NCBI RefSeq assembly: GCF_006345805.1
Contig: NC_043015.1
Coordinates: forward strand, 21,142,001 to 21,206,000
Source: Octopus sinensis
Taxonomy: Eukaryota
DNA: 64,000 nucleotides
Direction of reading: 5' to 3'
Shown: in pieces, positions 2,756-49,571 of the stretch
Layout of the letters: every line of letters begins with the position of its first letter
Numbering within the stretch: position 1 is the first letter of the stretch
Program-made: the position numbers and the translations under genes
The notes under the pieces: generated by a model
What the model saw: only the letters and a program-made list of their open reading frames with translations
Databases searched by the model: none
What the model was told of the DNA's origin: nothing

Positions 2756-3149
2756 AGGCGGCAAGGAGCTGGCAGAGACATTAGCACACCGGGCGAAATG
2801 CGTATCGGTATTTCGTCTGCCGCTACGCTCTGAGTTCAAATTCCGCCGGGGTCGACTTTGCCTTTCATCCTTTCGGGATCGATTAAATAAGTACCAGTTA
2901 CGCACTGGGGTCGATATAATCGACTTAATCCGTTTGTCCTTGTTTGTTTCCCCTGTGTTTAGCCCCTTGTGGGTAGTAAAGAAATAGGTATTTTGTGTCA
3001 CTTTACATTCTGAGCTCAAATTCGACTGAGTTCGACTTTGTCTTTCATCCTTTCGGCATCGATAAATTAAGTACCAGTTGCGTACAGGGGTTGATCTAAT
3101 CGACTGGCTCCCTCCCCAAACAGTTCGGGCCTTGTGCCTAGAGTAGAAA
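2756..3149 (+). mobile_element. SINE family B with internally duplicated body
   Basis: AAGGCGGC..GCTGGCAGA head, GAGTTCAAATTCC B-box-like motif present twice; copies at 11170 and 21709. Confidence 0.85.
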
Positions 3150-5241
3150 ATATTATTGTGTCTGCTTGGTCCTGAGCTGGAAGAACCGTTACTACGCCTC
3201 ACAAATTGCATAGCGGCATTTCTTCAGCATTTTCGGGCCAAATACAGTTTTTGCCGTGACTTAGCTCTTCATCTCTTCAACCGATAAAATAAATGTTAAT
3301 TGAGCTCTAGGTTCGATGCAATCGAATAGCTTCCACACTCTCGCAAAACTTAGGTCTTTTAACCTTAGCTGAAAGGATTATCTATTCTAGCTGCTCTAAA
3401 AAAAGAAAGAATAGATAAAATAAAAACCAGTAGAGCAGGATTTGGCAACGAAGTAACGGTATTGCAAAAAATATTCGGCGTCAGGCGGTGGAGGCAGTTT
3501 TGGTAGAACCCGCCTTTATTAACAAACATAATCAGCAAGACGAACTTTCATACCCTTTCTCACGTTTGTCTCAATCTGCGTCTCGTCTCGCTACGCCTGG
3601 GTCGAGGTACGTTTTAGCGACTACTTCTAGCAATCCGAGCAACCACATAGCGGTAAAGTATGACTATGCACTTGTGTATACGCGTAAATGTGTGTGTGTG
3701 TGTATGTGCGTGTATGTATGTGTGTGTGTGTGTGTGTGTGTGAACAACTACAATAAACATGAACAGCAACATAGTTTATTGTAGATGTTCATGGCGTTAT
3801 AATATACAACGGTTCACTGATTGACATTTAAAGTGAACTGGCTTTTGTGTGAATGTAATTTATGTGTCTGTGGCATTGTACATTGCTGATGGCCAATGTG
3901 TGTGTTTCTATCTGGGTGAGTGTGTGCGTACGTGTGTGAGTGTGGAAGTATGCGTGTGTGTATGTGTGTGCGCGTGCGTCTGTGAGTGTCGTGAATGAAA
4001 TTATGTGTGACAGTGTGTATGTATATGTGGGCGAATGTAGATAACAGCTTGTCAGCTTGTTACTATTATTCCGGTTCTTGACTATACACACAAACATATA
4101 TAGGTATGCATGTATGTATAAATGTATCCATCCATATATACATATATATATAACGGATATAATATATATATATATATGTGTGTGTGTGTGGTGTGTGTGT
4201 GTGTGCGCGCACACACATATACACAAGCATACAAATACACGGTTATGTACACACACACATATGCGTGTGGGATGGGCGCGTATTTATTACCATTTGATGT
4301 TTGAGACAGGAGTGTGTGTTGTCAACCATACTTGTCTATCCATCTCTCTCCCTCTCTGTCAACACACACATATATATATGTGTATATCTATATGTATGTA
4401 TGCCTATTGTTATTTCTGTGTATGTGTATACACACACACACACATGTGTGTGTGTGTGTGTGTGTACACACATTTGTATATGTAGGTATGTATGTTTGTG
4501 TATAAAACAATGACTGCACCCAGCAACAGGATAAACGAATAATGAATATCTGTCTATCGATCTTTTTATCCATTTTTATCGTTTTTTTTCGTTGCTATGG
4601 TTATTGCTTTTTGTCACCACACATTTCTTTAAACAGACATCACATCACAGTAGTTTCCAACGAATATCTTATAAATGTGAATCAGATCACACCCGATAAA
4701 GCACTCAGCCGAAACGAGTGTAGTGTGAGTAGCTGTAAAAATATATGTAAATGAACTCTACATCTGCATTATATAATATGTATTGACGAAGATGTCCACT
4801 TCGTTTTGTGTGTATTTACAAAGAATATAAGTGTATCTATGTATGGGTATTGTGATAGCACAATTCAAATAAAGAAAGAGTAAAATATTTATTTTAAATG
4901 AATGTAACAGTTATTCGTCTGCAGGTTACACTGGTTTCAGAATGAAGCAGACTGTGAGTTTGTAATGAAATTCTACATTCGTCAGGTCTTTGTAAGTAGT
5001 AAATAAAATTCATTTGTTATTTAGGAATGCCTGACGTATTGTAGGCTTTTTCGCTAGATCTACAAAGAATGATTGTTATATAAATATCGTAATAGCCTGC
5101 GTTTGATTAACTTTTATTCCGTATACAGATTAATAACTCTATATATGTGTGTGCGTCTCTATGTGCATGTTTGTGGGTGTACGTGTACATATACTTATTT
5201 ATGTGTATATTATATATAGATCTATGTGTGTGTGTGGGGGG

Positions 5242-5364: not shown

Positions 5365-5752
5365 CTAGCAATATCGCCCGGCGTTGCTCGGGTTTGTAAG
5401 GGAAATAACTATATAAGCATTTTTAGATATGTAAAGTATAATAGCCATCTCAATATGACTAACCACAAAGCGGGGGTGTTACTGTAGCTTTTTACGTTCT
5501 GAGATTTAATAATACATTTTTAGAGAGTTACTTATATAATAGCAAAAAATGAATTAAAAATGGGGAAAAATGATGGTAATTTTTTTTAAATCGTAGACTC
5601 ATCGTAGACGCGCGCTAATACCCAGAAGGCCTGGATATGAATCACGACTATAAGATACCCGCTTTTGGTTACACTGCACCGCAAAATGTGGGAGTAGTTA
5701 GGAATCTAAATCGTAGGAGACAGACACACAACTTCACTTTTATATATAAAGG
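5365..5752 (-). mobile_element. Non-autonomous Helitron
   Basis: Minus strand ends CCCGAGCAACGCCGGG hairpin then CTAG, begins CCTTTATATATAAAAG (variant of the TC start), sits between A and T with no TSD, and splits the fold-back arm cleanly. Confidence 0.75.
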
Positions 5753-5898
5753 TATTTCAGTGCCGGATTCAGTCATTGAGACTTTTTCAACAGTAATTTT
5801 TCAAAAGAATATTTGCATAGTATTTGAACACTATGCAAATATTTTTTTAAAAAGGTTTTCTTTTAATTTTTCCAAAATTTAATTGTTTTCCATACTTA

Positions 5899-5934
5899 TA
5901 ATTGAAAAAGTTCCAATGACTGAAACCGGTACTG
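5899..5934 (+). ncRNA. Candidate minimal type I hammerhead ribozyme, U3-A8 variant (helix I degraded)
   Basis: TTGAAAA-AGTT ccaat GACT-GAAA-CCGGTA-CTG; palindromic ACCGGT in helix III, GUA triplet. Confidence 0.55.
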
Positions 5935-6700
5935 AAATGCTTTCTATAAAATTATTTTAGCAATTTCTACTTTGACTTTTTCGATATATATGTATATATA
6001 TATATATATATGTATAAGGATGAAAAAGAACACACGAGTTGATATATATGAACAAATAGGTCAGGATAGAAAATGCTAAAATGATTTTATAAAGAACATT
6101 TCAGTACAGGTTTCAGTCATTTTCAACTGTAACAATTAAATAATTAAATTTAGAAAAATTAAAAGAAAAGTTTTTTTTTAAGAATAGTGGCATTTATAAT
6201 ATTAGTGGCATTTTCCTTGTTTCTGCCTTTCTCTGTCTCTCTTGTTTACTCTTGTGGGTTCGAGGTCGTGGTGAATTCTTGGTTGGGAAGAAGAAGAAGG
6301 AGGAGGAGGAGGATGAGAAGAAGGGGAGGAAGAAGACAAAGAATTTGGGAGTGCCTTGATTGTTGCATTTTGAATGGTCAGTGGAGGCTAGCATTTGCTG
6401 TTCAATTCATGAAAATATTTCTATTGAAAGTTTTGTTTATAGAATTTGCGCAGGTGTTATACTAAAAAGCATTAGTGATGAAGTTAAGAAGGAGAAGGAA
6501 GGAGAAGGGGGTGAAGAAGAAGAAGAAGAAGAAGAAGAAGAAGAAGAAGAAGAAGAAGAAGAAAGAGAAGGGAGAATATGAATGAGTGAAAGTAGTGAGA
6601 TGTTGGATGACTTAAAGTTGGCACGTTATGGAGTATAGCAGTGATTGAGGCTGATTTTTAATGGATTCTTAGGAATTTAATATTTGCGTGTGTATTTGTG

Positions 6701-7000
6701 TTACTCTAAGACCGAGACGGCTATATCGTTTGTCGTAGACGCGTTCAAAAGGGGCCTGTGTTTTGTAATAAAGAGAGTTTCTTTACTAATTCGTTGGCTC
6801 CAGGTTGCATCGTCCCTGAATTGGTACAGGGGAAAAATCCTGAAGCTTGGAGTTTTGTTGTTGGCGCAAATACCTATGTGTTTGCTGAATGCTATTTTTC
6901 TGATTTGGGGAATTTTTATCTGGGATCTGTGCATGGCCATTCTTTTACTTAAACTATTTTTTGTTTGGCCTATGACACCCAGAGCAAGTTAGTGTGTATA
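6701..7000 (-). pseudogene. PLE GIY-YIG endonuclease C-terminal remnant
   Basis: YTLTCSGC/IGQTKNSLSKRMAMHRSQIK..SKHIGIC..FRIFPLYQ..RISKETLFITKHRPLLN fits the GIY-YIG pattern (IY..C..C..YIGQT..R..H..E..I..P.LN); frameshifting deletion near 6975. Confidence 0.8.
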
Positions 7001-7517
7001 CCAGGTTCTCCGAAGCACGCGTGAAGTTGCTTTTCCCTGTTTGAAGGAGAACTCTGATCCCTCAAGTAGATCATCGCATATCCCACAATTGGGTCTTCCA
7101 CATTTTCTTTACTGTCGGCTTCTGTGTTGGTGAGCGTATTCGGGCTTGTGTTAGGAGACTTTTCATAGATTTGGGTTGTCTCTTGCTTTTTATGATCGTG
7201 TGTGTTTGGAGGATTAAGTTCATTCTGTGGTCCTTTTTTAGCAGCCTCGACTGCTAGCCTCCCTGCTAGCCTCCACTGACCATTCAAAATACTACAATCA
7301 AGGCACTTCCAAATTCTTCGTCTTCTTCTTCCCCTTCTCTTCCTCCTTCTTCTTTCCTAACAAGAATTCACCACGAACGACCTCGAAACCATAAGAGTAA
7401 ACAAGAGAGACAGAGAAAGGCAGAAACAAGGAAAATGTCACTTACATTTGAACACTAAACAAATATTCTTTAAAAAAAACTTTTCTTTTAATTTTTCTAA
7501 ATTTAATTATTTAATCG

Positions 7518-7559
7518 TTACAGTTGAAAAGGTCTCAATGACTGAAAGCGGTACTGAAA
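7518..7559 (+). ncRNA. Candidate minimal type I hammerhead ribozyme, U3-A8 variant
   Basis: CAG-TTGAAAA-GGTC tcaat GACT-GAAA-GCGGTA-CTG; helix I CAG/CTG, helix II GGTC/GACT. Confidence 0.6.
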
Positions 7560-7693
7560 TGTTCTTTATAAAATCATTTTAGCATTTTCTCTCTTGATTT
7601 GTTTTTTCATATTTATATATATTGGCTTATGATTTTCACTGTTTAATTTGCCTAATAGTGGTTTTATCTCAAATTTAATATGATATATATATA

Positions 7694-9224: not shown

Positions 9225-9325
9225 GATAGATATGGATATATGGGCGTGTGGAGTTTGTGTGGTTATGCACATTTCTTGATTTACCAAAGAGTTTCTTACC
9301 AGAAAACGGTCAAAGATATTCACGT

Positions 9326-9460
9326 GCAGATTGATAAATCCATATTGGAATCTACTTAACTTAAGATAGATATGGATTAACGTGGATTTAATCGATAACA
9401 ATGTAATAACATGATTCGTTAGAAAAATAAAACTAATCATCATACGTACAAGCATGTATA

Positions 9461-9513
<53 letters not shown>

Positions 9514-9759
9514 CGTGTGTGTGTGTATGTGTGTATGTGTGTGTGTGTGTGCATGTCTTTTTATAGGTATATATACGTATATATATATATATATATGTAC
9601 GTCTATATACATATACATACACACACATATATATATATATATTGATAAGAGGAATGACCACAAAAGTGGATTCCTATACGCTAGAGATAGACGTTAAATC
9701 ACTTCACATACACACACATAAATAGTATGTACGTCTATATTTATATATTATATATATTA

Positions 9760-9790
<31 letters not shown>

Positions 9791-10018
9791 CATATAGATA
9801 TATATGCGTAAATGTATATATAAACACTACATACGCGTGTGTTGGGATGTGTTCGTTTGTGTGTGTGTGAGTGTGTGTCGGTGTGTGCACGTATGCAGTA
9901 ATAGTGATCATTGTAGGTTGTTACCGAATCATTTTATTACATCGTTATCGATGAAATCCACGTTAATCTATATCTGTCTTGAGTTAAGTAGATTCCATTA
10001 TGGATTTATCAATCTGCA
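9326..10018. repeat. Inverted repeat (~93-bp arms) around a compound microsatellite block
   Basis: 9326-9418 is a diverged reverse complement of 9926-10018. Confidence 0.85.
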
Positions 10019-10261: not shown

Positions 10262-10565
10262 AAATATTAGGAATAAATCCAAACTTACAGGGAAAAATCA
10301 GATTTAGGATTGAATCCAATTTTATAGTAAAATATTATATTATATTAAATTAGAGATAAAACCACTATTAGGCAAATCATACAATGAAATTAGAGCCAAT
10401 ACATAAGATTAATTAATTTATATTTAAATATATATCAAAATTATAAAAAAGATAATGTTGATATATATTTAAATAATATAAATTAATTAATCTTATGTAT
10501 TGGCTTAAGTTTTTCATTGTATGATTTGCCTAATAGTGGTTTTATCTCTAATTTAATATAATATA
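10255..10565. mobile_element. AT-rich fold-back element in (TA)n
   Basis: ~100-bp arms sharing GAGATAAAACCACTATTAGGCAAATC; leader AATCCAAACTTAC.GG.AAAA.T.AGATTTAGG shared with 61550-62410; end motif also at 7640-7680. Confidence 0.75.
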
Positions 10566-10665
10566 TATATATTTATATATTTATATATATATATAAATAC
10601 ATATATACATATATACACATATACACACACACATATATACATACATACATACATACAAACATACA

Positions 10666-11127: not shown

Positions 11128-11169
11128 GTGGATAATATATAAACACGTATAAGGCGTATATAAACACGT

Positions 11170-11542
11170 CAGCACGCCGGGCGAAATGCTTAGCGGTATT
11201 TCGTCTGCCGTTACGTTCTCAGTTCAAATTCCGCCAAGGTCGACTTTGCCTTTCATCATTTCGGGGTCGATAAATTAAGTACCAGTTACTCACTGAGGTC
11301 GATGTAATCGACTTAATCCGTTTGTCTGTTCTTGTTTGTTCCCTCTGTGATTAGCCCCTTGCGGGCAATAAAGAAATAGGTATTTCGTCTGTCGTTACGT
11401 TCTCATTTCAAATTCCTCCGAAATGGATTTTGCCTTTCATTCTTTCGGAGTCGATAAATTAAGCACCAGTTGCATACAGGGATCAATCTAATCGAGAGGC
11501 TCTTTTCCCAAAATTTTCGAGCGTTGTGCCTAGAGCAGAAAA
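11170..11542 (+). mobile_element. SINE family B
   Basis: Colinear with 2756-3149, slightly 5' truncated. Confidence 0.85.
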
Positions 11543-12779
11543 GTATATATAAACACCTATGCATATATGTATAGATACTTACTAGCGTACATACATACGA
11601 CCGCGCACCTACTCATTCTTTCTCTCTCTATATATATATGTATATACACACACACATACATGCATGTATACACAACACACGTGATATTCTGGCGCATCTA
11701 ACTCGCTTGACAATGGGGATTGAATTTTTTTCTCAAATGAATTATCTCCCCTTGAATAGCTGTTTGATTATAGCAACACTTCATAAAATTACACACCATT
11801 AGAGCAATTCTAAAGTATTTCAGTGCCACATAATGTTTGACAGTTTTCGACACTTACCAAATTAAAAGTACAATGTCGTCCATGTGCTTCTGTTCAGTTT
11901 CCCCCTGAATTTCTTTCATAAACCATGCCTCGGCACGTGGATATAGAAACATACAAATACAGTTGAGATGGTACTCAGATCCTTATGGTTATGAGGTTGT
12001 TTTCTTCTATTTTATGGCCATGCTGGTGCACTGCAAAGTATGTTCTTCCATCAGGTTATTTAGTTCTAAATATGAAAGCGTGAATGTTAATATATTTCAT
12101 TAGAGTAGCAAAATAATTAATATCTATTTGGAATCTTTTAAAAGTATATAGTGAGAAGTGACACCAAAGAAAATTGAGTTTCAAGCAGTCCAGAGTTAAA
12201 TATGCATGTGCAATGTGTGTCTTAAAAATATGTTTCAGTTTTAATAACCATAGTAACAACACAGAGCGTATTTCATCCTCATATTCATCTCTTCAGCGAA
12301 TTAATGTTTTTGTGAAAATTTTCAGATATTATGAAATTGAAATAATGATACAGGCATTTTCCCCATCTCAGGCTTCTGGAAAAAGAATATAGTAAAATTC
12401 TAGCAATCAAAAGCAATCTGATAAATATGAAATATAATAAATGAAAGGTATATATCAAATGTGAATTAAATTCATTGACTGAGGCGTTAATGAAAATTAA
12501 TATAAGAATTTATAAGGGAGATAACTAGTTTAAACGCTGCACGAGACAGTGGTCCTGGATCATAGGGTACAGAGGTTAGAACTGTGAAAAGGTTCTGACT
12601 TCATAGTACCCCTTCATTAAAGAAGACTTACTCAGTGTCTGCAAAGATACCAGAATAGGAATTGTCTCGTGTGTCTGAACATCATATATTAGTTAGGCAA
12701 AGGACAATGCACAAACGAAAAAAAAAATACACACAGCCGTAAGGGTATATAAGGATTATATGTGAATGGTTATACACAT

Positions 12780-15242: not shown

Positions 15243-15533
15243 AATGTCATTGTTAGAAAGACTGAGAACATAAACCTGCTCTGACTATGAATTGATGTGA
15301 TACTACACACATCATATCACCATGAAAATCTCATACAAAAAGAAACCAAATATACAACCACACAAATATATATATATATGTATATATATAAAATTATAAA
15401 TTAGGGTACCTATGAGATACCACCATGCTGAAAATAGCAGCAATGATCTGACTCTAAAACTACCTTAATTTTCCATATATCAACACGGAGAGAAAAAAGA
15501 GACAAGATGAAACGAGTAAAAGATTACTGCATA

Positions 15534-15592
15534 ATCCTAGATCCCGGATTTCTGTCTTTGCATTTAGTAATGCTTTGCCTAGTCAGTAGAAT
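15534..15592 (-). ncRNA. Mutated hammerhead copy (G8U) in the left arm
   Basis: ATTCTA-CTGACTA-GGC..GAC-A-GAAATCCGGGATC-TAGGAT. Confidence 0.55.
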
Positions 15593-16074
15593 ACACACAG
15601 AAAAGAGACATAAATACATATATATATATAAGTACAACATACGAATACTTACATATACGAACGTATACCTACATATATATGCACGTATGCATCATGGCCA
15701 GTTCAAATGCCCGCCGTTTAATTTCAGGTGAAATATGGTTAAAATATCGCTGCAGTAAATACATTGACGAAATAAATTTAAATTTATATAAATAAGGATA
15801 AGATCGTTAACTTACTACGGCGATATTTTATCCACATCTCACATGGAATTAAACGGAGGGCATTTTGAACTGGCCATGATGCATACGTTCATATATATGT
15901 AGGTATACGTTCGTATATGTAAGCATTCTTATGTTTGACAGATACGTTTATATCGATTGAGATACTCATATCAATGAGGAGGAATGATTTTGTCTGAAAT
16001 CTTTCAATATATTGTCTGTATTTATATATCTTTTTATGTTTCTTTTTATGTATTTATGTTTCTTTTCTGTTCGT

Positions 16075-16133
16075 ATTCTACTGACGAGGCAAAGCATTAC
16101 TAAATGCAAAGTCAGAAATCCGGGATCTAGAAT
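16075..16133 (+). ncRNA. Type I hammerhead ribozyme candidate with intact catalytic core
   Basis: Helix I ATTCTA/TAGAAT; CTGACGA; helix II GGC/GTC capped by GCATT/AATGC; GAAA; helix III ATC/GAT with CGG loop; predicted cleavage after AUC (C16127). Confidence 0.75.
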
Positions 16134-16388
16134 TATCCAGTAATTTTTTACTAGTTTCATCTTGTCTCTTTGTTTTCTCTCCGTGTTGATATACGGAAAA
16201 TTAAGGTGGTTTTAGAGTCAGATCATGACTGCTATTTTCAGCATGGTGGTATCTCGTAGATACCGGAATTTATGATTTTAATAATTATTACCTTTGAAAG
16301 TTTTTTTTCCATGCTGACCACTTAATAAAATCGTTATTATATTTTAAATTAACGATCGTATCCTTAATTATATAATATGTATATATAT

Positions 16389-16678: not shown

Positions 16679-16686
16679 TATAAAAG

Positions 16687-16809
16687 TAATAATAAATAAA
16701 TAAATAATATATAGTACAGTACAGTTTCTACTTCGCAGTTTTCAACTATTGCGGAGGCTTCTGGAACGTAACACCGCGATAGTCGAAGGATTACTCTGTT
16801 GTGTGTATA

Positions 16810-16847
<38 letters not shown>

Positions 16848-17017
16848 TATATATAGATATGTATATATAATATATATATATATATTATATATTATATTAT
16901 ATATATATATATATGACTATGTTAAATATATATTATATATATATATGGATATATATATTATATATTATACATATATATATATAATATATATATAGATATA
17001 GATATATAATATATATA

Positions 17018-17073
<56 letters not shown>

Positions 17074-17181
17074 TAATCCTTCGACTATCGCGGGTGTTAC
17101 GTTCCAGAAGCCTCCGCAATAGTTGAAATCTGCGAAGTAGAAACTGTACTGTACTATATATTATTTATTTATTTATTATTA
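16687..17181. repeat. Near-perfect ~110-bp inverted repeat flanking a ~270-bp (TA)n-rich tract
   Basis: 16687-16795 vs 17072-17181, two differences seen; the inner end CAGTAATCCTTCGACTATCGCG resembles a pogo/Tigger-type TIR. Confidence 0.9.
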
Positions 17182-17212
17182 TATATATATATATACATAT
17201 AATATCTTTTTT

Positions 17213-17335: not shown

Positions 17336-17663
17336 CCATGTGCCTTCCGTGTGCCGCTCGCGGATCCCATAAAGAAATATATATTGCCTACAGTAATAGC
17401 CTACAACAGGATGAAAAGTGCCGCCACTTTAAAAATACCATTCCGTGCCGGATCGCCCCTACCTACCCAAGCTACGCTAGTGGATATAGAGGACATGAAA
17501 AGGGTTAACACGGAAACTAAGCCAGACATTTTGAGGGAGGTTTAGTCGCAAGATCCACCCAGCATTTGATTGGTATCCATCTTATCTACTTGGAAAGTGA
17601 TCTACAACATCCTTATACATTATTTACACTTGACGGATATTTGTCCTCGTCTTGTTTGTTGTT

Positions 17664-17709
17664 ACCACAACGTCTCTGCTGATACACCCTCCAGCCTTCA
17701 TCAGGTGTA
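17664..17709 (-). ncRNA. Minimal hammerhead copy with A14G mutation
   Basis: TACAC-CTGATGA-A-GGCTG..CAGCA-GAGA-CGTT-GTG. Confidence 0.55.
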
Positions 17710-17774
17710 TTGGGGAAACTTCAAAGCTAGGATTCTCATTCCTAAGGTATTTTTCGATGTTGTTGTTGTTGTTG

Positions 17775-17827
<53 letters not shown>

Positions 17828-17883
17828 TATTATTATTATTATATTATTATTCGAATGAGAATCCAGGTTTGAAATTTCCCCAA

Positions 17884-17929
17884 GACACCTGATGAAGGCT
17901 GGAGGGTATATCAGCTGAAAAGTCGTGTT
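17884..17929 (+). ncRNA. Minimal type I hammerhead ribozyme candidate
   Basis: GACAC-CTGATGA-A-GGCTG gagggtatat CAGCT-GAAA-AGTC-GTGTT; helix I GACAC/GTGTT, GUC triplet. Confidence 0.7.
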
Positions 17930-18841
17930 AACAACAAACAAGATGAGGACAGATATCCGTCAAATGTAAATAATATACATAATTTCACATCTTTTAAATA
18001 TAAACCTGTAGCATCCGTATTGGTAGAATTTGAAACCTGAAAGGACACAGCAGGAACTAAGTATACAAAAAACACTTCGGCCAATATCCTAACATTTTTA
18101 CGAGTACACCACTACGCAATATATTGAAAAATATCCTCAAGGGGCAGCGTAAAGTCTCTGCTGTTGACTAGAGTTAAGTAGGCTTTTAAGTATGCGCCAC
18201 AACATTTCGACCACCTCAACGTTTGACTTTTTGCAAACACCGACAGATATATTTATAAATATAGATAGATGTTCTCAGTTGAACGCTAAATATGCAAGTG
18301 CTCTATTAAAAGGTCAACCGATGACGACAACGTTACATATTGATGATTGTCTAAAGTTCAACGAGTAAATCTATATTTTTGTTTTCTTAGAAAACAACTC
18401 TCTTATTGACGATGTAATTGGATTTGGTTTCTTGAAGTAAGTTCAAAAATCATCGAAAAAAATGCAAGAAATATATCGACGCAAAAACGCTGATATTCTT
18501 TATTTTCTTTTGTGTTTATCAAGTTTTAAACCAATGAACTGCGACCATGCTGAAGCACTGACGACAATGAATTCAATCAGTGAAATGAAGACCAGTGTTT
18601 ACTCTGGTGCCCATTTTATTGAGACATATTGAACACAGGAATTTTGGGTTATGTTCCCTTTCTAAAAAGTCAACTGCTGATGAGAAATCCTTTGGGTATT
18701 TAGATCGAGTTTCCCGGGGTTACACAAACACAGATGTAAAAGCGAATGTAGACAGGCAGATAGACAGACAGTCAGACACACATCTACATATAGGCAAACA
18801 TATATCTCTACTTGTAAATACGTATGCAGTTGCATCGCCGG

Positions 18842-19204: not shown

Positions 19205-20952
19205 ATGTAGTTGCATATGTATTTAATGTGTTTTATTTATTTGTTCATTCATACATTCATACATACATACATACATACATACATACATACATACATACAT
19301 ACATACATACATACATGTGTGTGCGCGCGCGTCTGTGTATCTATGTTTCTGACAAGCCTACGAAATTGCATGAGGCCGAATTAAATTGTCTTAAGTAATA
19401 ATATATGTCAAAAATGAGTTAAAAACCTCTGTAATTTGCCTACTCATGTATGTGTGGGTGGGTGGATGTGGAGGCACACGTGCGTGTCTTTATATATATA
19501 TATATAATGTATTTACATACACGCACGCACACATTTGAAGTACTCAGTTCATCTTTTCAGAATTTCATCTTTGCTACGTAAGCAATCTAGTGTGTTTATT
19601 TTAATGGCATCTCAATGTATACAATGAGTTTCTGTGCCCTAAGTGTCTGGAAGACCCTCGGCAAGAAATGGAAACAAAATTGAAAGAACAAGATAAAAAG
19701 ATACTAATAGTAACAAGTCACAAGAGCAATAATTTTGAGGGCTGGAGGTAGTCATTTACATCAAATCCAGTGTTCAACTTGACTTATTTTATCGATCTGG
19801 AAATAATGAATGACAAATACGACCGCGGATGTATTTGATCTCAGAGCATAAAGACTGGAAAGAAACTCCACTGAGCTGTTTTGCCGGAGGAGCTAATGAT
19901 TTGGTCAGGTCGGTGCCTTTTCTTGACTTATTATAGACAATATTATGATGACGCGCAACAACATCAGTAACAACAGCATCGCCACCGACCACAATCATCA
20001 CCACTACAGACGACGACTACGACGACCGTCGCCACAATCACCGTCACCACCACGGCCACCACCACTATTAACCGAATGTTTTACAAATGTCTGCATCAAT
20101 AGCGATAATAATAATGACGGATGGAAAAGCAAATACACTGACAACACTGCCGACGAATACTTCAACGAAAGTACATCACCACAGCCGCCATCATCGCCAT
20201 TCCTCCATCGCCACTCTCTCCCTACACCCTACAAACACGACCTCCGCCACCAGTACAACTATTGATGCTATTGTTGGGGCCGGTGCTCCTCCTCCTCTTC
20301 CCCCTTCTTCTCCCCATACTGCTGCTGCTGCTGTTGCTGTCGCTGCTTCTACAATCACTACTGCATGTGCTGGTATTGTTACTGCTAATTTAACATTACG
20401 TCAGTTGTGCCCTTCGGTAGGTTTAGCTACGTCAAATACATGGAGCCATCGTCAAGCCATAAATATGAAATGAATAAGAGATAGTTAAAAAAAATTTTTT
20501 TAAATACCAATCGATAACACATACACGCAAACACGTATGGACACGTATAAACACATACACAAACACACACTAAGATACAAGTAGACATGCGCGCAGACAA
20601 ATGTACAAGCACATACATTCACAAGCGCGCAAATTATAAACCAAGATGGCCTCCATTTTCTTTTGATTTGCATACGAATTTGTGATACAGAGTGAGTTCG
20701 AGCGAATAATTATAGAGATTGGGTTGATGCGAAAAATTTGATAAAATAAATAAAACAAATGAAGAAAATTATTTTCACGTGAAAATGAACACGGCATATG
20801 TTGTACTGAGTGCTTCTTCGGTTATAGTTTGATTGTCTAAATATATATTAAAATGAAACAAATATATTAAATATATTTGTGAGCATATATATATATATAT
20901 ATAGATATATATATAATAATTATATAATATATATATATAAATATATATATAT

Positions 20953-21200: not shown

Positions 21201-21912
21201 TCTAACGACATGCACTAAGTCTGACAGATATATATATATATATAGTGGAATAATCTTAGTTACTGGATTATCTAAACTAACACACATAGATATCTAAACT
21301 AACTGCTTGTGGAAGTATCCTGAAAGTGGTTGAATACTCCAAATAAATCTCCACAAGCAGAATCAATAAGTCTCAGCATATAGCAACACCAGAGAATTGA
21401 ATTCTAGGTAGAATCCATTCTATGAGTGTCTGAGCAGTTTCCATCCAAATTCACTCATAAGTATTGGGTCTGCTCAGGGCTTTGGCAAAGTGGCAATTAG
21501 CAAAAGTGCCTGTGAGTGAAGTCTATACCAGGACCTCAGGAGAGAAAGCAAACTGAACAGTCGGCTATGCTCCGTCTATTGCTCATGTACACGCATACAT
21601 GTTATTTATATCTATGTGTGTTATGTACGTATGCATGCATCTACGCAGGTATTTAAATTCATTTTTTGAGGAAGGTGCATTAATACAGATATTAAGGCGC
21701 ATCATTAAGGCTGGCAGAAATACTAGCACGCCGGGCGAAATGCTTAGCGGTATTTCGTTTGCCGGTACGTTCTGAGTTCAAATTCCACCAAGGTCGACTT
21801 TGCCTTTCATCATTTCGGGGTCGATATAATCGACTTAACCCGTTTGTCTGTCCTTGTTTGTCCTCTCTGTGTTTAGTCCCTTGTGGGTAGTAAAGAAGTA
21901 GGTATTTCGTCT

Positions 21913-22103
21913 AATACAGTTCTATATTTAAGAGATGAGGAATTATGTACATTATTTACATTATTTACATTTGATGGATATTTGTCCTCATCTTATTTGT
22001 TGTTAACACAATGTTTCGGCTGATATGCCCTCCAGCCTTCATCAGGTATCTTGGGGACATTTCGAACCTGGGTTCTCATTCCTAAAGTATTTTTCGATGT
22101 AAT

Positions 22104-22164
<61 letters not shown>

Positions 22165-22278
22165 CATCATTAGGAATGAGAACGCAGTTTCGAAATTTCC
22201 CCAAGACACCCGATGTTGTGCTAATAGCAAACAAGACGAGGACAAATATCCGTCAAATGTAAATAACGTAAATAATGT
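21913..22278 (-). mobile_element. Non-autonomous HHR palindrome element, copy 2
   Basis: Same structure as 17617-18011 in opposite orientation with an (ATT)n centre; 12-bp TSD GGTATTTCG(T/C)CT at 21901-21912 and 22279-22290. Confidence 0.85.
22005..22050 (-). ncRNA. Minimal type I hammerhead ribozyme candidate
   Basis: GATAC-CTGATGA-A-GGCTG gagggcatat CAGCC-GAAA-CATT-GTGTT. Confidence 0.7.
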
Positions 22279-22444
22279 GGTATTTCGCCTGTCTTTACGA
22301 TCTGAGTTCAAATTCCACCGGGGTCAACTTTGCTTTTCATACTTTCGGGTTCGATAAATTAAGTACCAGGTACGTACTTGGGTCGATCTAATCGACTGTC
22401 GCCTCCCACAAAATTTCGGGCCTTGTGCCTAGAGTAGAAAAGGA

Positions 22445-38202: not shown

Positions 38203-39029
38203 CAGCCGTGAAGCGATTATACATTGTGACGAGAAATTTCCTATTCAAAAAAACCTATATAATCATCAATCGATAATACACAAACGACTAACGCGATTAT
38301 CGTAACGACTTATTGTTAATTGTTTTGTCAATTGCGATCAAAGCTTCCGGTCAGGCATGATGGGAGCTGGTATTGGGTAAGGGAAGTGAAATGATTGAAT
38401 GAATTGACTATTTACCATGTGCAGTCACGCTCACCCTAGTTCCCTACACTCTTTCAAACTATTAGGATGTGCTACTTACCTGTCAATTATAAATGCGATC
38501 CCTAACCTGTTGGCACCCCTTTCATGAAACACAATGTTTCCAAGGACCCGGCGATCACGCGCATAACAAAATACAATGAATCGCATAATACATAATACAT
38601 AATACACACACACCACACACACACACACATAAACACAAACACACAGACAGACACACACACAGACACACAGGCATACACACTCAGAAACACATATGTGTGT
38701 GTGTATATATATATATACACACGCAGTACACATATGATACATATATAATGCAAAACGACGCTGCAGACTGTGATAGTTAAGAAAGTAGATATAAATGAAA
38801 ATTTTTCCTGCGCTGCGCAGTAGCAAGTGATCCTCAGCCCTGTACTAGTCTAGGGTTTTGTGGTTGAGTATTCCTGATTTATACTGCCATTTTATATTGT
38901 GGTCTCAAATCAACCAATCAACCTTTCTTACACCCTTTCTATTAAAAAGGAACTCCATACACATTATAGCATTTTAAACATTTCTCATTGAAGAGTTAGA
39001 CGATGACTGCTGAGTATATTTTGTGTGGA

Positions 39030-40300
39030 TTTTTCTTGTTAGATTTTTCTTTCTAGCTTTTACTTCATTTTGAACTGCTTTGTTTATATATAATAGATCA
39101 TGCCTTCCTCTAGTCTTCTTCCTGTCACCTTTTTGTTCTTCTGGGAGTAAATTTCGGTTTTGAAGGTGCTCGTAAATGCTTTCTGAAACCATTTCTGTTA
39201 ACAGCTTCCACACTAATGGTGAGCCAGTGATTGGTCTATAGTGGTTATCTGTACTACCCTTGCTATTATATTGTATGGTGTGTCCTCCCTTAATCACCCA
39301 ATTTGGTATTATTTTTCCATTAAGGCAATCCTGAAGTTGTTCTCTCAGTCCCCCATGTAAACTACTAAATTTCTTTAGCCAGTACCATGGCCCTTCCAAT
39401 TCGGCAATTTTCTAGCTTCTTTTGCATTAGGTTTCTCATCTTCAGTACTTCGTTCTCCGCTGTTCTGTGTCGGATAATCTAGTGATACTGATGTATTTTT
39501 TCTGATATCTGGAGAGCCTTATTACTACTGCTATGACACACTGTTTCAGCTCTTCTATTTCTGTCCCAAATCCATTCTTTTTGAATAAGTGTCTTTTCTC
39601 AAGGGAAGATTTGCTTCTTGTGTTTCCTAACTTGTTCAGCTTCCCAGCTTCTATTCTACTTAGGTCTTGTCTTAAAGTCTTCACTTTATTTTGTATTCTT
39701 GTTATCCACATTGGCTCTTTTTAAATCTTTCCCTGTGGGATATCTTATCTTCTAGTCACTACTATTTCTCATACATAGTTAGTGTCTCCTATATTTTTAG
39801 TATCTATCCTACTGATAACAGAACATTCCTAGTCATTTCTAGAAGCTTCCTTCTGTTGGTACCTTTTAATGCTGGCAATCTTTACATTCTGCAACTCATC
39901 TAAAATCGTCTGATCTTCCTCGCTCAAATCATTTAAGTCGCTGCTGCCATTTGTCCCTTCCTAATTGGTAGCGCTATTATTATATTCTCCTTTAGGTTCT
40001 TCTTTGGTTTGAGCTGTAATTCTTATGTTGTGGTTTGCCTTTCCCACTGCCTGGTCTTTCTTCTCCAGTTCTCATGTAATCTCTTCTACTTCCAATTCTG
40101 TCATCCAATTTCTTCTCCCAATAATATTAGCTTGATCAACTAATCTCTGCTCTGTCAATTTAAACATACCCTTCTTTACCCAAAGTGTTAACATCGTTTT
40201 CTATAGCCCCCTTCTTTTAGGTTCACTTTCTAAGTAGCACTGCATCAATATCCTGTTTTCTTCGCTGCTACACTTCTTCCTCCTTGTCTGCTGTTGTATT
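39030..40300 (-). mobile_element. R4/Dong-like non-LTR retrotransposon, N-terminus to early RT, decayed
   Basis: LTEQRLVDQA; PMWITRIQNKVKTLRQDLSRI; YWLKKFSSLH..YRPIT..WKLLT..LLPEEQKG..DLLYINKAV. Confidence 0.85.
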
Positions 40301-44160: not shown

Positions 44161-44399
44161 GCCATAATGAATCTGGCAAAAGAGCTACAAATGAACATAA
44201 CATTCCAGTCATCACACGATGCCACCCCCACCACCCTATCGCACAAACTCCCTTTGCTGCCATTAATAAACAAACAATCACCATTAACAATCACCAATAC
44301 AGTCAAAACCAGTCACCATTATCGCCTCAACCTTTTTGCTCAATGCACAAGGCACCAGCCCTTCCACCGATGCCCAGAAATGGGATATCCAATTTATTG

Positions 44400-47170
44400 A
44401 GGACTGGGTTAATGGTAATCCACACCATACCCCTTTTTCCCTCCTCACAGTGACCCATCTCAATAACCTTCACGTGGAAGCTGAGATGAGAGTGAAGAAT
44501 TTTACAGCCATCCATGCAGATCATGTCGGCAGAAGAAAGGGTGGGACCGCCATTTTCGTGCACGATACTTTTTCGGCTGAACCAATGGACGTATTTACAA
44601 ACGGCTACTGTAAAGCAGCTTCTGTGTTTAGTAAAGCCAACAATTTAATAGTAGTTGAACTCTATAGGTGACTCCTAACTCCTTTCCTACGCTTCAAGGA
44701 ATGTCTCGACAGTATTAAGTGTTTCGTTCATCAGTGTCATGCTGGCAACATATTAATGATGGGGGACTTCAATCTTCCCAGTGTTGATTGGTCCACAAAC
44801 AGTTTGAAACCAATTTTTTCACCTCAACCCTTGATAAGGAAGCAATCGAACTGATTTTTGATTTCATGGATGAGCTTTTCCTGACCCAACTTGTTCGTGA
44901 ACCAACAAAGTGTGACAAAAACACTTTGGACCTATTGTTCAGTAACCACACTGACATTATCCTCAGTATTGCAGTGGAAAAACACCAGTACTCTCAGACC
45001 ATGGCACGGTTCTCTGCGACCTGAGATTCTACCACCCAAAGATCAAATCCAGTAGCATCTCTCCAGTCCATCCATTTGACACTATGGATCTTCATAACGC
45101 AGACTGGGTTGCGATCAATCATGATCTTTCACAAGTTGATTGGGCCTTCGCGCACGCACACACTCCCACTAACATAAGCATATCATGGCATACATTTGTA
45201 GATACTATGATAAATATATGCGTAGAACATACTCCATTAAGATCAGTATACAAATCTAAGTGCATAATTCCTAGAAATAGAAGAGTAATTATCAGAAAAA
45301 TAAAATGAATTAACAAGAAAATCAATCAACTTAAATTCTGCCAGTAGCAACGCACCCATTCGACTGCCATTGCTTCACTCAAATCGAAAAACACGACCAC
45401 CAAAAAAGCATGATGACCATCATTAGCAGCCAAAGACAGCTGAATAGAGTTGGGCCACCGAGAAAACAAGACACTATCTCAAAATGTTCTTTCCTTTTGT
45501 AAAAAAAAAAGCAACATAGAGACAGCTTCCACTGTTGGTCCTCGGGTTGATGAGAACTACACTCTACATGATGTCTTCAGTAATGTTAATGCGGTTGATG
45601 TGGCTAGTATCAGTGATGTAAACCCTCAACTAACCACATCTGACATAACTTTTAGTGCTCCTGATATCCTAACAGAAATAGATAAGATCAAGCACAACTC
45701 GGCAGAAGGTCCTGATAAGTTCCCGGTCACTGTCCTGAAGATGTGTCGACATCAACTTGCACCCCCTCTAGCTGAGCTCTGCAGAAACTCACTTGATGCA
45801 GGCTACATTCCTCATCATTTTCTATCCCAGTCTGTTGTTCAAGTCTTCAAAAAGGGAAACAAATCTCTTGCAGTGAACTACCGTCCAATTTCACTCACTT
45901 CTCATATCATTAAAGTATTTGAAAGAGTGGTGAGATCGCGAATAACCGACTTCCACGAAGACAACAATCTGCTGAACCCCAACCAGAATGGTTTCTCTGA
46001 TGTCAGGGAATGGCTGTCGCAGCTTTTGTACCATTTTGATGAACTCTTAAAGCGTTGGGAGAAGACTCCAACACTGACGTCATATGTCTTGATTTCAGCA
46101 AGGCTTTTGACAGAGTGGACCACAAAATCCTGCTGAAGAAAATTTTCATCATTGGAGTCCGTTGAAAGCTGCTGCAGTGGATAAAGTGCTTCGTGACAAA
46201 CAGAGCTCAACAGGATGTGTTTGAGGGAATACGATCCAGCTAAGCCAAAGTCAGAAGTGGTCTCCCGCAAGGTACTGTGTTGGGCCCGTTCCTCTTCATT
46301 ATTTACATCAATGACATAGGAGATGTCATCAGACATTTTACATTGAAAATCTTTGTAGATGATTCCAAACTTCAGAAATCCATAACCGGCATGGGAGACG
46401 GAACATGCCTTCAGTCATATCTGTTTGCTATTGTGCAATGGGCGGTAAATATGCTTTTAAATGAAGATAAGTTTGATTTGATCCACTTTGGAAAAGAGGG
46501 AACTCTGAAATTACCATACGCGCTTCCCTTGAGCAACTCCCTAGTGTCATCCAACAACACAAGAGACCTTGGAGTAATTGTTGATAACAATCTAAGCTGG
46601 AGTTCCCACATAAACAGCAAGGTTGACTTGGCCCGCAAGATATGCTCCTGGATTCGGAGAACTTTTCAGTCTAGAGATGCCTGCACCATCATCCATCTGT
46701 ACCCTAATTTTGCCCGATTCCTCCTTGAATACTGTTGCCCACTGTGGTCTCCCCATACGAAGCAACTCATTCTGAAAGTAGAAGCACTCCAGAGGTCAAT
46801 AACAAGAAATATAGACAGCATGAGAGACATTGATTATTGGAGTCGGCTAAAAAAACTCAATTTCTGCTCTCTTCAACGTCGCCGGGAGCAGTACATCATG
46901 TATGTTAAGTGGAAAATATTCCATCAATATTGCACAAATGATGCTGACATCAGTTTTAAAATCCATTGGTCCCCGTGCTATCCGCCCTCTACAAAAATCG
47001 AACTCGGTACACATAGTAACATTATGTCACAATTATTTTACTTCAACCGGACAAGCTCTCTTTAATACCATACCAAAATACGTCAAAACGGAAACGGATC
47101 TCATAAAATTCAAATGTTCATTGGACAAATTTCTTCAAAAAATCTTATTAAAATTCATGTCCGGCTAATC
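44400..47170 (+). mobile_element. CR1/L2-group LINE, near-complete APE+RT ORF2 disrupted by stops and frameshifts
   Basis: GGTAIFV, GDFNLP, NTLDLLF (APE); GPDKFP, NYRPISLTSHIIKVFE, DFSKAFDRVDH, GLPQGTVLGPFLFIIYIND, FVDDSK, RDLGVIVD, LEYCCPLWSP (RT). Confidence 0.95.
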
Positions 47171-48697: not shown

Positions 48698-48731
<34 letters not shown>

Positions 48732-48742
<11 letters not shown>

Positions 48743-49109
48743 TATATATATATATATACGTGGTTCCGGGTTCAGTCCTTCTGCGTGGCACCTTGGGCAA
48801 GTGTCTTCTACTATAGCTTCGGGCCGACCAAAGCCTTGTGAGTGGATTTGGTAGACGGAAACTGAAAGAAGCCCGTCGTATATATCTATATATATGTATG
48901 TGCGTGTATGTTTGTGTGTCTGTATTTGTCATCCTAACATTGCTTGACAACCGATGCTGGTGTGTTTATGTCCCCGTCACTTAGCACTTTGGCAAAAGAG
49001 ACCGATATAATAAGTACTGAGCTTACAAAGAATAAATCTCGGGGTTGAGTTTCTCGATTAAAGGCTGTGCTCCTGCATGGCCGCAGTGAAAGTGACTGAA
49101 ACAAGTAAA

Positions 49110-49151
<42 letters not shown>

Positions 49152-49513
49152 TATATATATATATATACGTGGTTCCGGGTTCAGTCCTTCTGCGTGGCAC
49201 CTTGGGCAAGTGTCTTCTACTATAGCTTCGGGCCGACCAAAGCCTTGTGAGTGGATTTGGTAGACGGAACTGAAAGAAGCCCGTCGTATATATCTATATA
49301 TATGTATGTGCGTGTATGTTTGTGTGTCTGTATTTGTCATCCTAACATTGCTTGACAACCGATGCTGGTGTGTTTATGTCCCCGTCACTTAGCACTTTGG
49401 CAAAAGAGACCGATATAATAAGTACTGAGCTTACAAAGAATAAATCTCGGGGTTGAGTTTCTCGATTAAAGGCTGTGCTCCTGCATGGCCGCAGTGAAAG
49501 TGACTGAAACAAG

Positions 49514-49518
<5 letters not shown>
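48732..49518 (+). repeat. Tandem direct duplication (~409-bp period) of a 5'-truncated family C SINE
   Basis: 48760-49107 and 49169-49516 are identical except one A (GGAAAC vs GGAAC); the unique flank TACACACATATTA is also duplicated. Confidence 0.95.

Positions 49519-49571
<53 letters not shown>

Follow-up and report, generated by a model that had tools for sequence, protein, structure and literature searches.

The insert at 17617-18011 is the decayed footprint of a Penelope-like element (PLE), in which two copies of the element's end repeat (pLTR) stand head to head, each with a damaged hammerhead motif. It is called copy 1 here. The window, i.e. the whole 64-kb stretch that was analysed, is AT-rich, microsatellite-dense animal DNA and contains a second insert of the same family, copy 2 (Table 1). 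The insertion of copy 1 and its target-site duplication (TSD) are real. This kind of insertion is already known: an inverted, 5'-truncated pLTR, a one-sided tail of 30-40 bp and a short TSD have been described for PLEs (PMC8557442, PMC3846280, PMC2377424). Copy 1 is very probably the inactive footprint of one EN+ Penelope-like retrotransposition that copied the 3' end only. By class it was filed as an ORF-less pLTR remnant of about 10 % divergence, either 5'-truncated or non-autonomous.

Layout of the insert and its target site

Read on the plus strand, the 395 bp of copy 1 comprise the inverted arm, (TTG)6 (17760-17777), (TTA)~24 (17778-17849), the forward arm and the 35-nt tail. Complementarity of the arms amounts to 88 % (17616-17728 with 17865-17977), and the alignment of 17617-17741 with 17853-17976 has 13 differences at 125 sites, eight transitions and five transversions. 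Every part named in the preliminary description was recovered from the sequence: an inverted arm, (TTG)n(TTA)n, a full arm, a tail of about 35 nt and flanking 9-bp repeats. The inverted arm had been called short, which is correct for its 3' end only; at the 5' end it carries an 18-nt stretch and the microsatellite, both missing from the forward arm.

Table 1 Features of the two inserts and of the interrupted host repeat, in window coordinates
Feature	Position	Strand	Remark
Host-repeat copy, old and interspersed, split by the copy-1 insert	17517..18041	+	E 0.008 for the left part by itself; E 3e-05 for the continuous alignment with the insert removed
Copy 1, left TSD, 9 bp, CATCCTTAT	17608..17616	+	matches 18012-18020 at 8/9
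Copy 1, inverted pLTR arm, tail-less	17617..17759	-	includes the 18-nt 5' stretch 17742-17759, missing from the forward arm
Copy 1, damaged minimal hammerhead, inverted arm	17664..17709	-	GAAA changed to GAGA; 10.1-11.1 G.A mismatch; sole arm with ACGT palindrome
Copy 1, microsatellite (TAA)n(CAA)6	17760..17849	-	belongs to the element, where it precedes the pLTR; oriented as the inverted arm
Copy 1, inversion junction, 3 nt	17850..17852	.	centre of an 8-bp perfect palindrome
Copy 1, forward pLTR arm, 5'-truncated	17853..17976	+	arm comparison
Copy 1, damaged minimal hammerhead, forward arm	17884..17929	+	core boxes intact; 10.1-11.1 G.U; palindrome broken to AAGT
Copy 1, one-sided tail, exactly 35 nt	17977..18011	+	homologous to the 36-nt tail in copy 2
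Copy 1, right TSD, 9 bp, CATCCGTAT	18012..18020	+	8/9 match to the left repeat; host-repeat profile
Copy 2 with both TSDs	21901..22290	-	insert proper 21913-22278
Copy 2, TSDs, 12 bp	22279-22290 and 21901-21912	-	11/12 match; 10-12 bp allowing for microhomology
Copy 2, inverted arm, hammerhead core deleted	22170-22278	-	arm alignment
Copy 2, microsatellite	22100-22169	-	(AAT)n directly 5' of the shared 18-nt stretch on the tailed arm
Copy 2, tailed arm with hammerhead at 22005-22050	21949-22099	-	arm alignment
Copy 2, tail, 36 nt	21913-21948	-	homologous to the copy-1 tail

The 9-bp TSD, first proposed as putative, is supported by paralogous empty sites within the window, through a profile of the host repeat for copy 1 and through two uninterrupted host copies for copy 2. 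The host repeat interrupted by both inserts is a dispersed sequence that we take to be SINE-like. A profile was built from eight of its copies in the window and was tested on 19 joins of the copy-1 flanks, with 0 to 18 nt dropped. The left flank alone scored 11.0 bits, and the best join reached 18.9 bits with exactly 9 nt dropped, against 17.2 bits with 8 nt and 15.3 bits with 10 nt, a small margin between 8 and 9. The duplication at copy 1 is supported, since the host repeat split by the insert regains its profile best on the loss of exactly 9 nt. A score as high was obtained for one of 400 random right flanks, itself a host-repeat copy. Among non-simple flank pairs at the spacing of copy 1, direct repeats with 8/9 matches were found in 5 of 8295 cases at exact placement, in 14 of 8318 with 3 nt slack and in 146 of 8217 with 6 nt slack. 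Excision of copy 2 together with one duplication copy yielded a sequence gap-free at the join when compared with the uninterrupted host repeats 2765-3155 and 11148-11548, and the duplication sequence occurs a single time in each of these. A short TSD of variable length, single in paralogous empty sites, is clear for copy 2 and supported for copy 1. The host repeat makes up about 2.8 % of the window and harbours both insertions of the family (17517-18041, 21749-22441), at different positions in the repeat; this possible preference was noticed after the fact. A target motif common to the two insertion sites was not evident. The host repeats 2765-3155 and 11148-11548 are two-part units, within which about 120 bp are repeated.

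Comparison of the two loci

Three copies had been counted at the outset. The arm profile detected four arms at two loci, and neither blastn nor this profile revealed a third locus below E 4 in the 64-kb window; the count of three applies to the arms in which the motif is retained. In the fourth arm, which is the inverted one of copy 2, a 28-nt deletion removed nearly the whole hammerhead core and left the helix I halves. At both loci an inverted 5'-truncated pLTR adjoins the main pLTR, the inverted arms terminate at one identical base, and the tails of 35 and 36 nt fall within the range of 30-40 bp given for PLEs (PMC8557442). The microsatellite is part of the element, since it is located directly 5' of the shared 18-nt stretch in both copies; in copy 1 the arm that bears it is the tail-less one, in copy 2 the tailed one. 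The arm opposite the microsatellite starts in both cases no more than 4 nt from the same TAA. Copy 2 is joined by a 3-nt TAA overlap, whereas the 3-nt junction of copy 1 inside its palindrome is not a clean TAA overlap. Homology at the left junction is 1 nt in copy 1 and 0 nt in copy 2. A 9-nt duplication is common to the two arms of copy 2 and missing from those of copy 1, and two substitutions likewise separate the arms by locus; one variable CpG site groups them across loci. With different junctions and TSD lengths, and with locus-private characters common to the two arms of each locus, copies 1 and 2 are separate events and not one palindrome moving as a unit.

No reverse transcriptase (RT) or GIY-YIG domain could be linked to the family: tblastn with five PLE proteins matched only the region 6.7-7.2 kb and neither copy, and the translated arm, a weak test, gave one candidate among protein relatives and none that was significant. 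For these reasons the family was not filed as an autonomous element. A coding role of the arms was rejected, as they have no long frame and no relatives. Prokaryotic relatives were not found either: nine phage records at E 0.5 covered 42 AT-rich bases, and two exact 19-mer matches in GTDB genomes, where about four were expected, had flanks with 11-18 of 60 positions identical; both results correspond to chance. In the published literature on hammerheads, Penelope and octopus the family was not found; it may be contained in Repbase, Dfam or the supplements of papers (PMC4209133, PMC13282606).

The hammerhead motif and RNA folding

No arm of either locus carries an intact hammerhead. The three arms that retain the motif have in common the CUGAUGA box, an extra A between positions 9 and 10.1, a helix II of 5-6 bp, a two-base insert, a UH site and a 5-bp helix I. 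The GAAA box is intact in two of the three, N17 is T in two, and the ACGT palindrome is present in one; the copy-2 motif has ACAT at the place of the palindrome. Position 11.1 is T, A and C across the three arms, without a majority. One arm has the G10.1-C11.1 pair and one has a palindromic 15.1-16.1, never together, and the column majority yields the palindrome, not C11.1. A loss of the pair and of the palindrome through CpG decay is plausible, because both sites are CpG. Of the consensus that had been derived from three copies, CUGAUGA and the extra A are present in every arm; the remainder is partly reconstructed, with CAGCC resting on a single arm. By the N17 rule established for hammerheads, the cut in the forward-arm motif is predicted after 17924.

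A strict descriptor of the minimal hammerhead matched twice in the window; 197 of 200 shuffles had no match and three had one. The helix cells were paired in 31 of 35 cases (88.6 %) versus 20-54 % in slid registers. Compensatory pairs in the helices numbered zero, in an alignment of four rows only. The Rfam hammerhead models had no match in the 64 kb at the gathering score or at E up to 10, and what Rfam returned at E up to 10 was limited to generic hairpin (microRNA) and chance matches.

The motifs resemble the minimal hammerheads of metazoan PLEs as portrayed in PMC4209133: they are of type I, with a 5-bp helix I, an extra A after A9 and a two-base insert, which in one of the three arms gives a 4-nt palindrome at 15.1-16.1. 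They differ from the Schistosoma motifs of that study by a helix II of 5-6 bp, compared with 7-8 bp, and every arm here misses at least one feature conserved among the metazoan motifs. Pairs of motifs on opposite strands, separated by 100-700 bp, had been reported earlier from Schistosoma, and minimal hammerheads are reported not to cleave as monomers and to cleave at a low level as dimers (PMC4209133). The preliminary description had assigned copy 1 to the dimer-type minimal architecture of PLEs; the features agree with those in PMC4209133, but the two motifs lie on opposite strands and provide no dimer in cis. The motif of the parent element probably was a minimal hammerhead assisted by a protein or by dimerization. 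Minimal hammerheads of metazoan PLEs are reportedly also treated by Lunse et al. 2017.

As the two motifs face opposite ways, one being the complement of the other, a read-through RNA would be a long hairpin and not a ribozyme dimer. The hairpin of copy 1 is predicted at -175.5 kcal/mol (z -19), with 37.6 (plus strand) and 41.5 (minus strand) of the 46 motif bases predicted to pair outside the motif. Single arms had a predicted probability of 0.0004-0.018 for the hammerhead shape and no excess folding stability over shuffles (z 0.04 to -1.37). Since mutations affect every arm, and the read-through RNA would pair the motif with its antisense copy, the hammerhead of copy 1 most likely does nothing. 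A short near-palindrome (ATGT/ACAT) is centred on the arm-tail border in both copies (17968-17984 and 21941-21957); it was not favoured in single-sequence folding.

Origin of the head-to-head arms

The following course of events is proposed for copy 1. A PLE protein with RT and GIY-YIG domains, encoded elsewhere, would have nicked both target strands 9 nt apart, as suggested by the TSD. Both free 3' ends may then have served as primers on the element RNA, with reverse transcription starting from the tail end in one case and 35 nt further upstream in the other; such priming would give the tailed and the tail-less arm whose ends are seen in the insert. Both cDNAs would have stalled on reaching, or shortly before, the (UAA)n tract that precedes the pLTR, and would have been joined head to head at or beside a TAA microhomology, a joining deduced from the observed junctions. 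The target would have been duplicated during gap filling, and the arms would since have decayed to their difference of about 10 %. A change of about 5 % per arm, set on the divergence scale of O. vulgaris (0.09 per 25 million years, PMC13282606), places copy 1 by rough inference near 15 million years. In O. vulgaris, PLEs have been annotated with 31 recently active families (PMC13282606), and for the giant squid 235 Rfam hammerheads have been counted (PMC6962438).

Close parallels come from canonical EN+ PLE insertions (Penelope/Poseidon; Pen2a_Av of Adineta vaga, PMC3846280), which also possess an inverted 5'-truncated pLTR and a one-sided tail, there of 31-37 bp. The Adineta insertions have TSDs of 8-10 bp and an overlap or palindrome at the inversion junction (PMC3846280). 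Unlike these, copy 1 has neither an ORF nor a second direct pLTR between its arms, and its truncation is marked by (TAA)n; the likeness described here concerns the layout. The Poseidon protein of Anolis carolinensis cuts and extends both target strands in vitro, initiates at two sites on the RNA, which mark the limits of the tail, and needs no target homology, while its hammerhead is protein-dependent and dispensable for insertion (PMC11167929). Copy 1 is comparable to this element, Poseidon_Ac (PAc), in that its tail, too, would be delimited by two positions 3' of the hammerhead at which the RT starts, and in the missing target homology. PAc is full-length and active in vitro, with an ORF that extends from its start in helix II across the tail (PMC11167929), whereas the ATG in the core of the copy-1 family reaches a stop after about 25 codons. 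How PLEs build up inverted pLTRs and tails is described as still open (PMC8557442), and the steps beyond first-strand synthesis were left unvalidated in PMC11167929.

Regarding the number of cDNAs, we lean slightly towards two that were independently primed. They are favoured over a simple fold-back because the tail and the microsatellite of copy 1 are on opposite arms; with the microsatellite on the tail-less arm, neither cDNA alone could have templated the whole hairpin. A tentative second reading, clearly the less likely one, keeps the PLE origin and has a single cDNA fold back at the microsatellite and prime itself; the endonuclease would resolve the hairpin and leave the tail, and a one-sided central deletion would follow. 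Palindromes at inverted junctions have been interpreted as self-priming in PMC3846280. Copy 2 fits directly, with its 3-nt TAA overlap and a loop on the tailed arm, and copy 1 offers the 8-bp palindrome at its junction and the private characters common to both arms of the locus. For copy 1, however, self-priming needs a template for both the tail and the microsatellite, which are on opposite arms, and hence an extra deletion or an antisense RNA, and the extension of both strands has been demonstrated in vitro (PMC11167929). It retains its standing because the later central deletion could rescue it.

The opposite microsatellite asymmetry of copies 1 and 2 is a countable prediction that separates these two published models. 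As a single locus copy 1, old, broken and built on a plan already described, has little weight; it is of use as a probe. Inserts of about 400 bp preserve both junctions, the tail and the TSD, and their empty sites are readable from paralogous host repeats. Rather speculatively, the family might be a short (about 200 nt) non-autonomous octopus PLE passenger, in which (UAA)n halts the RT dependably enough for most insertions to be twin-primed hairpins of 350-400 bp, perhaps with a preference for the presumably SINE-like host repeat. If this were true, counting across the genome which arm carries the microsatellite would tell twin priming from self-priming in PLEs, and octopuses, known for heavy A-to-I RNA editing, would possess in this family a mobile source of long dsRNA.

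Other origins are improbable to differing degrees. Animal non-LTR retrozymes (PMC7229834; preprint 10.64898/2026.07.22.740005) are likewise short, non-coding and PLE-related, carry a type I hammerhead and, according to the preprint, are derived from PLE pLTRs; copy 1 might accordingly be an inverted monomer of such a tandem, circRNA-forming, non-autonomous PLE derivative. This we consider unlikely: retrozymes form head-to-tail arrays with canonical motifs, whereas copy 1 is a head-to-head pair with minimal motifs that have no helix III or loop 3, its unit was not found in head-to-tail repeat within the window, and the one-sided tail is a mark of PLEs. Still less probable is a hairpin retained by the host as functional dsRNA, a substrate for editing or small RNAs; the very stable predicted fold would suit such a role, but is expected of any inverted repeat, the 13 mismatches include no compensatory change, and the search for a nearby host exon yielded none, two candidate frames at 19.9-20.5 kb being negative in Pfam. 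The long inverted arms, the simple repeat between them and the flanking 9-bp duplication recall a MITE or foldback DNA transposon with long terminal inverted repeats, in which the hammerhead-like motif would be incidental or inherited. The right end, however, is not a terminal repeat, as the 35-nt tail is located outside of it, and the copies differ in TSD (9 bp versus 10-12 bp), junction and microsatellite side, which renders this origin very unlikely. Least credible of all is a local inverted duplication by break repair at a microsatellite, with the hammerhead-like motif and the direct repeat due to chance: other palindromes in the window are centred on microsatellites without a hammerhead and indicate that hairpins can arise otherwise, and Rfam gave no match, but two dispersed copies share arm end and tail and each split a host repeat with duplication, descriptor matches arose in just 3 of 200 shuffles, and the empty sites of copy 2 demonstrate mobility.

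An unrelated second PLE family, which we take to be Neptune-like, occupies 5.7-7.7 kb and has no similarity to the copy-1 family by blastn or profile. With its broken frame 6701-6988, a full scan without profiles retrieved 226 proteins (E up to 0.001), some of about 750 residues; a word-index search with the GIY-YIG piece had retrieved none. Of the six matches scanned, all contained GIY-YIG and three also RVT_1. It consists of a broken GIY-YIG end (6701-7250, minus strand), a microsatellite and a pLTR with a worn hammerhead-like motif, has an inverted arm at 7264-7640 and (TA)n at both ends, and thus follows the same plan as the copy-1 family with the GIY-YIG end still attached. Upstream of the GIY-YIG domain is a CX2-5CXXC motif, which is Neptune-like by the definition in PMC8557442. 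Beside this family, a short palindrome with related arms is located at 5740-5980.

Further inverted repeats were observed in the window: a palindrome at 16679-17189, 400 bp from copy 1, with arms of about 120 bp around a long (TA)n and no hammerhead motif; nested repeats, 15389-15620 with 16047-16280 (91 %) and an inner one at 15618-15953; and repeats around AT-rich simple sequence at 10323-10579 and 9325-10018. The low-complexity open frames at 19927-20473, in which His, Thr, Pro and Ala abound, had no Pfam match and represent a possible exon or a degenerate trinucleotide repeat. The minus-strand frame 38974-39411 reads like a piece of a non-LTR reverse transcriptase, presumably Dong/R4-like, and had no Pfam match. 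A broken LINE-type reverse transcriptase extends over 44288-47065; the most similar named relative of its frame 46244-47065 is an Octopus sinensis protein, whose 70 % identity (over 60 % of the query length) exceeds that of all other matches listed, so that the host is probably an octopus. A 408-bp tandem duplication at 48699-49571 is 98 % identical and is either recent or an assembly artefact.
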